The notes under the pieces were generated by a model. It was not told where the DNA came from and ran no database searches. It saw nothing but the letters and a program-made list of their open reading frames with translations. DNA of 64,000 nt, taken from NCBI GenBank assembly GCA_964630365.1, contig CAZVUP010000003.1, positions 98 to 64,097 on the forward strand, written 5' to 3'. The DNA is from an uncultured Muribaculaceae bacterium (lineage in GTDB: Bacteria > Bacillota_I > Bacilli_A > RF39 > UBA660). Positions within the stretch are counted from its first letter, which is position 1, and each line of letters opens with the position of its first letter. A program made the translations under genes and the position numbers. Shown here piece by piece: positions 34,490-38,207 of the stretch.

Positions 34490-35536
34490 ATGGATAACTT
34501 AATAACAATTTATATGAATTATAAAGTAGATAGACTTGTTGAATATGGTGCTTTAATTTATGAAGACTCTAAGTTTATTCGTGAAGTCTTTAAAGGTTAT
34601 TTTGATACTTATATTGACAATTATTATTATGGTATTTTTAATACAGTTGATACTGATACTTATAGTTTAGAAACATTACAAGTTGAACTTAATGGAATAA
34701 TGTCAGATATTATGGATGATTATCGAGGTTATGAATTAAGAGTTAGTAATGAAGAATTTGCGAAAAATATGAAAATTATTAGAGATCTTCGTGATGTTTC
34801 TTTCGAAATAATTAAATTAGATAATTTAAGTGGTACAGATAGAGAAGAACTTGAGGGAGAAGTTTCAAAAATAATTACAGAAAGTTCTATTCTTAGTGAT
34901 TTGATAGGTAATAGGATGAGTAAATTAGTAACTCTTGTTCGAGAAACTAATACTAATTCTAGTAAGTTATTAAATTATGAAGATGAATTTTATTCATTAG
35001 AAAAAAAGAAATTTGTTAATAGTGAGATAGAATTTATTTCTTTAAAGTGGGATATTAGAATTTTAAATAATTATAAGAAAGCAATGATTAATAGAATTTT
35101 TGGTGATAAGAAATTTGAAGTTAAAAAGCTTAAATGTTTAATTCAAAAGGTATCATTATATATACTTAAAAAAGTTTTAAATAAGGAAGATGTTAAACCA
35201 ATATTTATAGATTTATATGATAGTAGTATAGTACGGGGAATTATAAGTCGAGAAATATACTTATTACTTGATAATCCTTTGTTTCGTAAATATGTAATAA
35301 TGGGTGTTAATTATAATAATTATTTAATACATAAAGAAGCTTTTTCTGAAGATTTTCAGTTTGCATGTAGGCAGGATTTTTCGCATATTAATGATATTTA
35401 TAAAAAGGTTGATGACATTTATAAGGAAGGAATTTTTAATTATTTATTAGTTTCTAAATGTCGAGATACTGATTTAGATTATTTTACTAGTTATGAAGCT
35501 GATGGATTAGAGGTATTGATTTTAGAGGAGGAGTAG
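34490..35536 (+). CDS. Hypothetical cytoplasmic protein (first gene of the three-gene insert preceding sipW)
   Basis: No TM or signal peptide and no motif recognised. Its stop is 1 nt before the next start. Confidence 0.6.
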   Translation: MDNLITIYMNYKVDRLVEYGALIYEDSKFIREVFKGYFDTYIDNYYYGIFNTVDTDTYSLETLQVELNGIMSDIMDDYRGYELRVSNEEFAKNMKIIRDLRDVSFEIIKLDNLSGTDREELEGEVSKIITESSILSDLIGNRMSKLVTLVRETNTNSSKLLNYEDEFYSLEKKKFVNSEIEFISLKWDIRILNNYKKAMINRIFGDKKFEVKKLKCLIQKVSLYILKKVLNKEDVKPIFIDLYDSSIVRGIISREIYLLLDNPLFRKYVIMGVNYNNYLIHKEAFSEDFQFACRQDFSHINDIYKKVDDIYKEGIFNYLLVSKCRDTDLDYFTSYEADGLEVLILEEE

Positions 35537-35537
35537 G

Positions 35538-37064
35538 ATGGATACATTTATAAGATTTTTATTTGAGTTTATGTCTGTATTCTTTAAAGGTATTGGTCTT
35601 ATACTTGGTGGATTTGTTAAAGGTATTGTGCAAATGTTCAATATTAGTGAATATTTGTATACTATTGAATTCTATCGTAAGGATTTTTCGGGCGGAGAAT
35701 GGGTTTTAGTAATTCTAGCGATACTAGTAATATTAGTTCTTCTTGGATTAATAGTATTATTAGTTGTTTTCTTAGTTAAAAAATATCTTAAATTTAGAAA
35801 GACATTAGTTGAACAAGAATCACTATTAGAAGAAGTTGGAGAGTTAAACCGTGAAGTTGCTTCTTTGGTACAAGAAAAAGAGAAAATTTTGGCAATGAAA
35901 GTATCACAACTTGGATTAAAGCCAGGAGAAGAGGATACTGTTGAAGAGGCTGATGTTAAGGATGAAGAAGTATTAGAAGAAGGTGACTTTAGATTTTCTA
36001 AGTTACATGCAATTGATTTAGAGTTTAAAGATTATAAAGTTCAACAATATAATAATACTTTTACTTTAGAGGAGTTAGTTGAATTATTTAGAAATTTTGC
36101 AGCTTCTAAATTAAAACTTTATTATACGACTAATATGATTAGATTGTTTATTTCGGGATTGTCTGCAACAAAACTAGTTATTTTACAAGGTATTTCTGGT
36201 ACTGGTAAAACTTCACTTGCTTATGCTTGGGGTAAATTTATAAAGAATGATGCGATTATTGCATCTGTTCAACCATCTTGGAGAGATCGTACAGAATTAT
36301 TTGGTTACTTTAACGAGTTTACAAAAAAGTTTAATGAAACTGAAGTGTTAAAGGGAATGTATTTAGCTGGTTATACTGATGATGTTTATGTTACTGTACT
36401 AGATGAAATGAACATTGCGCGTGTTGAGTATTATTTTGCGGAAATGTTATCTATCCTTGAAATGCCATCAAGAGATGAATGGATTATTGAACTTGTACCT
36501 AGTACTTGGGAAAGTGATCCTGTTAGATTAGAGTCAGGTAAGTTAAAAATACCTGGAAATATGTGGTATATCGGAACAATCAATAATGATGACTCGACAT
36601 TTGCAGTTACTGATAAAGTATATGACCGTGCTATGCCAATAGATATTAATGATAAAGGTCAAGTATTTGAACCAATTGATACAGAAGCAATGAATATTAA
36701 TAGTTCATATTTAGAAGGATTGTTTGCTGAAGCTAAGAGTAAATATCCATTGACTGAAGCAATGGAAAGTAAAATTAATGAGATGGATGACTATGTAATT
36801 AAACATTTCAGAATTGCTTTTGGTAACCGTATTGTTAAACAGATGCGAGACTTTGTCGCAACATATGTTGCTTGTGGTGGTACAGAAGTCGATGGTGTTG
36901 ATTATTATATTGCAAGAAAAATTTTAAGAAAGTTTGAACAATTAAACTTAGCTTATATTCGTGATGAAATTGATCCATTTATTGAGTTCTTAGATAAAAG
37001 CTTTGGAAAAGAAAACTTTAATGAGTGTAAAGAATATTTATTAAGACTTAAGAAGATGGTTTAG
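35538..37064 (+). CDS. Membrane-tethered McrB-family AAA+ NTPase (probable GTPase)
   Basis: Two N-terminal hydrophobic segments (second is EWVLVILAILVILVLLGLIVLLVVFLV) and a coiled-coil-like linker. Walker A GISGTGKTS. Walker B VTVLDEMNIARVEYYFAEMLSILE. IPGNMWYIGTINNDDSTFAVTDKVYDRA parallels McrB [17 protein letters not shown]..RRRF. Confidence 0.75.
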   Translation: MDTFIRFLFEFMSVFFKGIGLILGGFVKGIVQMFNISEYLYTIEFYRKDFSGGEWVLVILAILVILVLLGLIVLLVVFLVKKYLKFRKTLVEQESLLEEVGELNREVASLVQEKEKILAMKVSQLGLKPGEEDTVEEADVKDEEVLEEGDFRFSKLHAIDLEFKDYKVQQYNNTFTLEELVELFRNFAASKLKLYYTTNMIRLFISGLSATKLVILQGISGTGKTSLAYAWGKFIKNDAIIASVQPSWRDRTELFGYFNEFTKKFNETEVLKGMYLAGYTDDVYVTVLDEMNIARVEYYFAEMLSILEMPSRDEWIIELVPSTWESDPVRLESGKLKIPGNMWYIGTINNDDSTFAVTDKVYDRAMPIDINDKGQVFEPIDTEAMNINSSYLEGLFAEAKSKYPLTEAMESKINEMDDYVIKHFRIAFGNRIVKQMRDFVATYVACGGTEVDGVDYYIARKILRKFEQLNLAYIRDEIDPFIEFLDKSFGKENFNECKEYLLRLKKMV

Positions 37065-37076
37065 TAGGAGGCATTT

Positions 37077-38207
37077 ATGGAAGATGAGGAACTTGAAAAG
37101 TTAGAAGAAGAGGAAGAACTTGATGATGAGGGTTTATTCTTGAATAATCTTAATTCTACCTTATTTATAAAAAGGGATTATGATTTAAAGTTCCTTGACT
37201 ATGAATGGGTAGATAAAATAGAGGATGTTTTACCATATCTTGATAATATTTTACGTAATCCTAAACGTTTCATTATTAATGAAGAAGAGATTGTTAAGGT
37301 TGAGTTATCAAGAAAAGTTACTGTTGAATCTGTTATTCATTTAACGCAACATACTAATTTGATTCAAAAGATTGAAGATAATGGTGATGTTAAACCTTCA
37401 AAGATTTTAAATATTAATAAAGAAGAAAGTTTAGATACTTATGAAAATAGATTTATTTATACTTTAATAAATAATTTAAGAACTTTTTTTGAACAGAGAA
37501 CTGAAGAAGCTAGTGGTGAATCATATTGTTTAGATAAAAATCTTTTACAGTATGAAGCAAATTCAAAAGTACGTGGAGAAGACTTAAAAATATCTGTTGA
37601 TTTAAGTGATAGTTCTAAAGAAATAAAAGAACACTTGGGATGGCGAGGTAATGTTTCTTTAGAAGATCGTCTTAAGATGATAAAGACGCAAATAGATGGT
37701 TTTTTTGGAACAGAACTTATGAGTATTCTTAGTAAGTTACATGTACCACCGGTTAGAAGCCCAATTAAGAAGACTAATGTTATTTTAAAAAATCCTAACT
37801 TTAGAAAAGCTGAAGAATTATGGAATTATATTCAGTCATTTGAGAGTAAAGATAAACGTGAACGTGATAAGAGAGACTATTTTGATCGGGGAGTTTTAAA
37901 AAATGAATATGATCAAGCTTTCTTAATGGCCTATATGGCTAATAAAAACTTTATTAATAGTAGTCGAACTGGAACTGAGACAGAAATTATTAATTTGATG
38001 TTTAAGAGATTAGTTGATAATTTACTTGATACTGATAGTGAACTTAATGAGGATAAATTAAAAGATATCTTTAATAAACAGTTAGCTAGTATTAAAGAAC
38101 AAAATATAAAAAAATCGAAAAATATTTTTAAGATTATTGATAATAGATTAGATAGAGAAAATAAACATCTTGAAGATATTTTAGGTAAATTAAGAAGAGA
38201 TGGTTAG
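37077..38207 (+). CDS. McrC N-domain-like (DUF2357-like) partner protein with no recognisable nuclease motif
   Basis: Acidic N-terminus MEDEELEKLEEEEELDDEG. SLDTYENRFIYTLINNL resembles E. coli McrC NEDTLANRIIKSTL. I found no hhhD..ExK motif in the C-terminal half. Confidence 0.55.
   Translation: MEDEELEKLEEEEELDDEGLFLNNLNSTLFIKRDYDLKFLDYEWVDKIEDVLPYLDNILRNPKRFIINEEEIVKVELSRKVTVESVIHLTQHTNLIQKIEDNGDVKPSKILNINKEESLDTYENRFIYTLINNLRTFFEQRTEEASGESYCLDKNLLQYEANSKVRGEDLKISVDLSDSSKEIKEHLGWRGNVSLEDRLKMIKTQIDGFFGTELMSILSKLHVPPVRSPIKKTNVILKNPNFRKAEELWNYIQSFESKDKRERDKRDYFDRGVLKNEYDQAFLMAYMANKNFINSSRTGTETEIINLMFKRLVDNLLDTDSELNEDKLKDIFNKQLASIKEQNIKKSKNIFKIIDNRLDRENKHLEDILGKLRRDG

Follow-up and report, generated by a model that had tools for sequence, protein, structure and literature searches.

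A CoCoPALM-type locus with a predicted membrane-anchored McrB-family GTPase, a McrC-like partner and a SipW-type signal peptidase

McrBC is the textbook GTP-driven restriction motor, and the locus described here raises the question of what a membrane-anchored relative of that motor does beside the gene for a SipW-type signal peptidase. The locus lies within a stretch of 64,000 nucleotides (the window) of contig CAZVUP010000003.1, from an uncultured Muribaculaceae bacterium (assembly GCA_964630365.1), with about 28% G+C and nearly all genes on the + strand. A preliminary description of the window had proposed a membrane-tethered McrB-like nucleoside triphosphatase (NTPase) and a nuclease-less McrC-like partner beside sipW; the anatomy and the close packing of the genes hold, and its NxxD motif, its TasA label and its view that the context was not a known one do not.

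The last of these is outdated, as the class was named CoCoPALM by Bell et al. 2024 (eLife 13:RP94800, PMC11090510), whose main-text passages on it amount to one paragraph together with a supplementary figure, with analysis deferred to a later paper and no experiments reported. The window carries a typical CoCoPALM member, of a clade with two transmembrane (TM) segments; the class is already named and its function is uncharacterised. We think it probable that this type of module is a McrBC-derived GTPase machine without DNA recognition or nuclease, acting on the cytoplasmic side of the membrane as a dedicated part of a SipW-peptidase-dependent surface-fibre or adhesin system, and that restriction or defence is not its role. 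The features that bear directly on this reading are as follows (aa, amino acids).

34490-35536, +: p348, a predicted cytoplasmic protein of 348 aa and third conserved component (helical bundle and alpha/beta domain)
35538-37064, +: predicted AAA+ GTPase of the McrB family, NxD clade, with a membrane anchor, 508 aa (PDB match, motifs, tree)
35547-35630, +: weaker hydrophobic segment of the GTPase (hydropathy)
35700-35777, +: strong TM helix of the GTPase (hydropathy)
35796-35906, +: short heptad-repeat, coiled-coil-compatible linker of the GTPase (heptad scan)
36189-36629, +: catalytic motifs of the GTPase, namely Walker A, Walker B, the N349-x-D351-D signature and R364 (alignments)
37077-38207, +: McrC-like partner, 376 aa, no nuclease detected (Pfam DUF2357)
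37218-37517, +: DUF2357 domain of the partner (Pfam)
38208-38807, +: SipW-type (archaeal/endoplasmic reticulum-type) signal peptidase I (TIGR02228; Ser and His kept)
38819-39553, +: small secreted paralogue, 244 aa, of a fibre-subunit-like family (family comparison)
39543-39567, +: hairpin and T-run, terminator-like, at the end of the 244-aa gene (terminator scan)

The GTPase, its partner and the adjoining peptidase gene

McrB chains are the only significant matches of the 508-aa protein among all PDB sequences (phmmer; 6hz4, E 3.8e-5), which bears out its earlier placement in the McrB branch; a MoxR-branch identity was rejected on the same result. The NCBIfam McrB model PRK11331 matches at E 1e-5, under the equivalog cutoff, and Pfam AAA_5 is weak in the query and present in 32/32 aligned relatives. 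Walker A (GISGTGKTS, residues 218-226), Walker B (VLDEMN, with D289 and E290) and the IPGNMWYIGTINNDD stretch align to E. coli McrB (PDB 6hz4) as the preliminary description had them. The NxxD motif that it had read must be revised to NxD followed by D/E: the query signature TINNDD is readable both ways, and the family alignment, with the signature GT(A/I)N-x-D-(D/E)-STF and with GT(A/I)N-x-D-(D/E)-ST in nearly all of 127 representatives, fixes it as N349-N-D351-D. According to the relevant passages of PMC11090510, an NxD variant followed by D/E defines one major branch of the McrB GTPases. Residues G218, K224, D289, N349, D351 and R364 are among those invariant in the family. Its Walker A and Walker B motifs, its signature and its arginine being intact, the 508-aa protein is, as judged from its sequence, an NxD-clade McrB-family AAA+ protein and a predicted GTPase.

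The N-terminus has a clear TM helix at approximately residues 55-80 (Kyte-Doolittle 3.76) followed by the basic stretch KKYLKFRK, and the positive-inside rule would place the AAA+ domain on the cytoplasmic side. Of the two hydrophobic segments and coiled-coil-like linker reported earlier, the second segment and the linker are upheld, the latter as about five heptads at about residues 87-123, inside a heptad-compatible segment at 75-123, in a simple heptad scan, then an acidic linker; the first segment (residues 4-31) is weak (Kyte-Doolittle 1.66), and relatives usually have two hydrophobic N-terminal segments. Pfam searches found no DNA-binding specificity domain in the 508-aa protein, whose N-terminus is taken up by the TM, heptad and acidic segments. 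The CoCoPALM passages of PMC11090510 describe an NxD GTPase fused to an FtsB-like TM and coiled-coil domain; hmmscan gave no FtsB match for the anchor here, a homology for which HHpred-level sensitivity would be required, and a weak FtsL-type match at residues 63-115 (E 0.12). The PADLOC model PDC-M26A matches the AAA+ core alone (residues 177-316, 1.8e-36), and the partner and p348 match no component of that system, so that membership of PDC-M26 was rejected.

The 376-aa partner matches Pfam DUF2357 (PF09823, the McrC N-terminal domain) over residues 48-147, with 38.8 bits against a gathering score of 23.3; the motif SLDTYENRF lies within this stretch and the N-terminus is acidic, in agreement with its first description as McrC-like. 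This is its only match across Pfam, NCBIfam, PADLOC and the PDB. Searches of the PDB with the single sequence and with a profile found no McrC, and hhalign detected no direct similarity to E. coli K-12 McrC. The reported lack of a PD-(D/E)xK motif is borne out by profile searches, as no nuclease family was found in the partner in Pfam, NCBIfam or PADLOC, and by an AlphaFold2 (AF2) model of low confidence (pLDDT, predicted score in the local distance difference test, 61), in which beta-hairpins at residues 70-112 and 158-175 precede an almost wholly helical region (residues 190-376) with no alpha/beta nuclease core apparent. Together these results support a partner that is probably nuclease-less. 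The long terminal helix (residues 325-375, pLDDT ~75-88) is heptad-compatible at 341-375. Foldseek matches of the model are meaningless because the model is poor, and a regular-expression search for D...(D/E)xK is uninformative because the partner is rich in charged residues. Partners in Clostridia-type loci are longer (677-853 aa); none of the six tested contains a recognised nuclease family, and one (L083) has a coiled-coil-type Pfam match.

The third gene of this group is identified as sipW by its match to TIGR02228 (68.7 bits, cutoff 51.85) and by the presence of both catalytic residues, the serine in GSM and the histidine in THR, as had been thought; the product scores 73 against the B. 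subtilis SipW equivalog model, below the cutoff of 190, and has one N-terminal and one C-terminal TM helix. The open reading frames (ORFs) and junction sequences match exactly the tight packing and the gaps first described for the p348, GTPase and McrC-like genes. The p348 and GTPase genes meet at TAG-G-ATG (35534-35540, a 1-nt gap), preceded by the Shine-Dalgarno sequence GAGGAGGAG; 12 nt containing AGGAGG separate the GTPase gene from the McrC-like gene at 37077; and sipW abuts the McrC-like gene at TAGATG (38205-38210). The hairpin at 39543-39567 is the only terminator-like site on the + strand within 32266-39567. Since the junctions abut or overlap and the first + strand terminator is this hairpin, a single transcription unit across the locus is plausible. 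A promoter-like site (TTCAGA-16-TATAAT with extended TG, 34441-34468) lies in and just before the 32-nt gap 5' of the 348-aa gene, and by this consensus match the trio and sipW could have a transcript of their own.

The pair resembles E. coli McrBC in an AAA+ core that carries both Walker motifs, the signature and the arginine, and in the two-gene arrangement with a McrC-type partner, a presumed ring activator. It differs in having a TM and coiled-coil anchor where the E. coli protein has its N-terminal DNA-binding domain, in a signature that is NxD rather than NxxD, in a partner with DUF2357 but with neither direct McrC similarity nor a detected PD-(D/E)xK nuclease, and in its surface-fibre gene context, as opposed to restriction-modification islands.

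Relatives, synteny and the p348-peptidase fusion

An exhaustive search of 1.84 billion cluster representatives returned 8191 clusters related to the GTPase, 760 of them at <1e-30, and a scan of one genome per species found relatives in at least 547 species-level genomes. The best 80 relatives (53-86% identical) come from metagenome-assembled genomes of uncultured Bacilli, of Erysipelotrichaceae- and Mollicutes-labelled organisms and of Clostridia, mostly from gut and rumen; the Clostridia carriers are Acutalibacteraceae, Oscillospiraceae and Ruminococcus sp. CAG:488. A neighbour-joining tree of the AAA+ core from 127 representatives divides cleanly by N-terminal architecture into a 2-TM clade (35, including the query), a multi-TM clade (39) and a TM-less clade (53), the last comprising 700-900-aa proteins that match the CoCoNuT architecture. 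Gene neighbourhoods in species-level loci with at least 4 kb on either side of the GTPase gene were tallied for these clades; the partner count for the multi-TM clade is to be read with the many partners there that have diverged beyond the reach of the hidden Markov model (HMM) used.

2-TM clade, n=52: McrC-like gene adjacent, 52; SipW-like gene within two genes, 52; small secreted proteins, 49; p348, 40
Multi-TM clade (GTPase 590-680 aa), n=31: McrC-like gene adjacent, 10; SipW-like gene within two genes, 31; small secreted proteins, 0; p348, 0
Non-TM relatives, n=10: McrC-like gene adjacent, 9; SipW-like gene within two genes, 0; small secreted proteins, 0; p348, 0

In two Firmicutes classes, Bacilli and Clostridia, the set keeps its synteny with SipW-type peptidases and with the small secreted paralogues. 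Within the nearest group the GTPase is 82% identical, the McrC-like protein 60%, SipW 57%, the small proteins 37-51% and p348 31%; by this measure no other gene of the locus evolves as slowly as that of the GTPase, which is apparently under purifying selection.

No family in Pfam, NCBIfam or PADLOC matches p348. A strict HMM places an orthologue immediately upstream of the GTPase gene at 43 species-level loci. At 12 others a SipW-like peptidase of 633-756 aa has the p348 domain as its C-terminal half, after the second TM helix; the N-terminal half of these fusions is SipW-like with Ser and His kept, Peptidase_S24 being confirmed in three, and p348 itself is not peptidase-like by the strict HMM. 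The two TM helices of the peptidase would make the p348 domain of the fusions cytoplasmic, and from the fusion p348 and the peptidase are predicted to be physically linked. By its recurrence and its fusion, p348 is the third conserved component of the system.

The locus agrees with the main-text account of CoCoPALM in PMC11090510 in its NxD McrB-like GTPase with a TM and coiled-coil anchor, in its McrC homologue without an active nuclease, in the coiled-coil segments of both partners, and in its linkage to signal-peptidase-family genes (sipW abutting here; 52/52 and 31/31 loci in the two clades). Those main-text passages make no mention of p348 or its fusion to the peptidase, of the distinction between 2-TM and multi-TM clades, of a pseudo-peptidase paralogue, or of the GTPase as the most conserved gene, and what is added here to the named class is a third component, a peptidase fusion that predicts physical contact, and the two clades. 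No later CoCoPALM paper was found in the literature searched, and the only match to SipW together with McrB was an E. coli genotype. CoCoNuT systems (CnuB/CnuC) share the NxD McrB branch, the coiled coils and partners in which the nuclease is often absent or inactive; their GTPases differ in having long cytoplasmic coiled coils and no TM segment, corresponding to the non-TM clade of the tree, and they associate with HEPN or other nucleases, the non-TM relatives being peptidase-linked in 0/10 loci.

Possible roles of the module

The preliminary description had offered two readings, a component of fibre machinery and a defence module. The former is favoured because of the peptidase synteny in all 52 loci of the 2-TM clade and all 31 of a second TM clade, the 12 p348-SipW fusions, and the GTPase as the slowest-evolving gene. 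In the mechanism that we propose, the GTPase would form a hexameric ring tethered beneath the membrane, and the DUF2357 domain of the partner would enter this ring and stimulate its hydrolysis of GTP. Through the partner's helical tail and p348 the ring may be connected to the cytoplasmic tail or tails of the peptidase, and in this way hydrolysis could gate or power the cleavage of signal anchors and the release and polymerisation of fibre subunits and large adhesins. What the sequences show are the parts, their motifs, the synteny and the fusion described above; for the ring and its activation the model is E. coli McrBC (Niu et al. 2020; Nirwan et al. 2019; both cited in the passages of PMC11090510 on this point), and for the coupling it is the fusion.

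Several points weigh against this reading. The action of a cytoplasmic ring on extracellular assembly is an inference, and the SipW/TasA fibres of B. subtilis are not known to require an NTPase, so that the need for one here is not obvious. The TasA-like label first given to the small secreted proteins is unproven, as the five paralogues and 22-26 relatives show no similarity to TasA or camelysin (Peptidase_M73) in Pfam, NCBIfam or PDB profiles, and their putative fibre nature is drawn from context. With its model at low confidence the partner may contain a cryptic or degenerate nuclease fold. The PDC-M26A match shows that the GTPase core shares ancestry with defence-island relatives, and the literature search found no experiment on any CoCoPALM system.

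The predicted structure of p348 hints at a different role for the same parts. Its AF2 model is confident (pLDDT 90.8, predicted template-modelling score 0.86), with a helical bundle at residues 1-161 and an alpha/beta domain at ~165-348, and the top 20 Foldseek matches in the PDB are mostly EAL domains (RocR, Bd1971, FimX, MorA, PA3825 and YahA), with probabilities to 0.99 and template-modelling scores of ~0.45-0.48 on the target. On this basis p348 might be a degenerate EAL-type sensor of a nucleotide (e.g. c-di-GMP) that sets the activity of the SipW-type peptidase together with the GTPase and its activator, forming an inside-out regulatory switch with no motor, by analogy with LapD controlling LapG and FimX controlling PilB. 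The fusion of p348 to the cytoplasmic end of the peptidase in 12 species and the giant and VWA adhesins encoded in the locus would suit such a switch, and LapD-LapG and FimX-PilZ-PilB are alike, by analogy only, in coupling a cytoplasmic EAL-like domain across the membrane to a giant-adhesin protease or to an assembly NTPase. Unlike in FimX and LapD, however, the resemblance of the p348 fold is weak (Foldseek E-values 7e-3 to ~1) and without sequence support: no EAL signal was found by Pfam in 51 p348 members, by a PDB profile search or by hhalign against E. coli PdeH, and the metal and substrate residues of canonical EAL domains could not be made out among the positions that are invariant, the conserved residues being N262, Q295-D296-F297, D302 and K306. 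The EAL likeness of the modelled C-terminal domain is a hint only, and we regard the switch as possible but unlikely.

A combination of the two, a nucleotide-gated inside-out machine in which an EAL-derived p348 sensor on the SipW tails couples the GTPase ring to signal-anchor cleavage and to fibre and adhesin polymerisation, seems to us distinctly doubtful. Were it borne out, a restriction-enzyme motor would for the first time be shown to have been exapted to protein-fibre biogenesis, and the SipW pathway here would be energy-dependent.

Defence was the other role first considered, in conjunction with a nuclease gene upstream of the trio.

31295-32242, +: DUF1016/YhcG PD-(D/E)xK nuclease gene (Pfam, PADLOC PDC-S02)

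A defence or abortive-infection module could have lodged in the fibre operon, or could guard the fibre as a phage receptor, with DUF1016/YhcG or the membrane anchor as effector. The McrBC ancestry, with the PDC-M26A match of the AAA+ core, accords with this, as do the position of the PDC-S02-matching DUF1016 gene 2.2 kb upstream on the same strand and the presence of non-TM GTPase relatives on plasmids. The DUF1016 gene is, however, absent from all 83 related loci surveyed and present in one 96%-identical relative (L164), which is collinear with window positions 31270-47412 and in which synteny breaks exactly at 31270; upstream of that point the relative has housekeeping genes where the window has adhesin genes, the whole cargo block being missing at this position in that closest relative. 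Absent from 83 loci and placed at a synteny breakpoint, DUF1016 is best regarded as a marker of a variable junction and not as a partner of the pair, and a joint defence role with it was rejected. In the trio itself neither a nuclease nor any other effector domain was detected. Patchiness and fast evolution are typical of defence genes, whereas here the peptidase synteny is invariant across Bacilli and Clostridia and the GTPase gene is the best conserved of the locus. The GTPase family is also virtually absent from viral contigs (one distant relative in 2.9 million), and plasmid matches cover the core only at <40% identity, from which carriage by a prophage or plasmid was likewise rejected. 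The 83-locus survey, the breakpoint and the scarcity in viruses and plasmids leave the defence reading very improbable.

A general role in the envelope or in cell division, co-located with the fibre genes by chance, is suggested by the TM and coiled-coil anchor (weakly FtsL-like by hmmscan, FtsB-homologous in the passages of Bell et al., PMC11090510) and by the very high conservation of the GTPase, but is barely credible, because chance co-location is unlikely given the invariant peptidase linkage in two independent clades and the p348-peptidase fusion, and the conserved neighbours, many of which lack annotation, included no recognised division genes.

If the pair is indeed obligatory in a fibre pathway, a defence motor would clearly have been recruited to build the cell surface, and SipW-type fibre assembly, which in Bacillus is not known to need an NTPase, would include a step that depends on energy or on a signal. 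Uncultured gut and rumen Firmicutes carry the system widely (the species-level genomes with relatives counted above), alongside giant and VWA adhesins, and because it sits with these it probably bears on host or particle attachment.

Paralogous peptidases, small secreted proteins and the cargo region

The wider locus contains further members of the peptidase and small secreted families.

12890-14116, +: SipW-like peptidase paralogue, 408 aa, Ser and His kept, in the variable upstream cargo region (hhalign, alignment)
22013-22753, +: SipW-like paralogue, 246 aa, without the catalytic Ser and His, a pseudo-peptidase (hhalign, alignment)
32266-32910, 32914-33516 and 33525-34457, +: small secreted paralogues of 214, 200 and 310 aa (hhalign, TM segments)
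41453-42055, -: fifth small secreted paralogue, 200 aa, its place kept in relatives (family comparison)

The five small proteins form one paralogous family (hhalign probabilities of 90-100% among most), each with an N-terminal signal anchor, and carry a (S/T)-Y-A-x-Y-like motif after the hydrophobic core, which may resemble the GT(W/F)AxF signal of the TasA type. The two upstream SipW paralogues are recognised by hhalign at a probability of 99.9. The first looks active from its retained residues and has a cytoplasmic tail of ~250 aa; in other species the peptidase upstream of the GTPase bears the p348 domain in place of this type of tail. In the second GSM has become LIG and THR has become KSD, with both TM helices kept; it has homologues in most related loci, and at least one from Clostridia (L050) keeps Ser and His.

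With a SipW-type peptidase, small secreted paralogues and VWA proteins, the locus resembles the tapA-sipW-tasA operon of B. subtilis and the sipW-bsaA-bsaB-bsaC operon of C. perfringens. The latter is the closest studied fibre analogue (PMC11580942), and secretion of its VWA protein BsaC requires type IV pilus components including the pilin PilA3 (PMC11580942). These two operons differ from the present locus in that they lack McrBC-like genes; here, in turn, the small proteins have no detectable TasA or BsaA similarity, and one of the three peptidase paralogues is catalytically dead.

The variable cargo at 14126-31272 encodes two VWA proteins of ~1050 aa that are paralogues, a protein of 2616 aa that matches nothing in Pfam, and a 695-aa adhesin with Listeria-Bacteroides-repeat/SHIRT domains; the adhesin ends in NPYTKTEG, a hydrophobic helix and RKNQ, which looks like a non-LPXTG sorting signal. 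Farther upstream, a 344-aa ORF at 9942-10976 has its N-terminal signal-anchor region in common with the small secreted family (E 4.6e-6) and a DUF11/SpaA-like surface protein of 504 aa is encoded at 6132-7646; because of these two genes the surface-protein island may begin well before 12890.

Among the multi-TM loci, those from metagenomes, mostly of the human gut (L085-L154), have a conserved gene order of their own and encode two small proteins of ~230-290 aa and a SipW-like protein of 320-370 aa, then the GTPase (~600-676 aa), followed by proteins of ~420, 255, 530, 810, 370 and 220 aa. In an 83%-identical relative (L001-L003, 14270-15510), an insertion sequence element consisting of an rve integrase gene and a helix-turn-helix gene lies between the gene for a 247-aa small protein and the reverse-strand paralogue, showing that this junction tolerates insertions.

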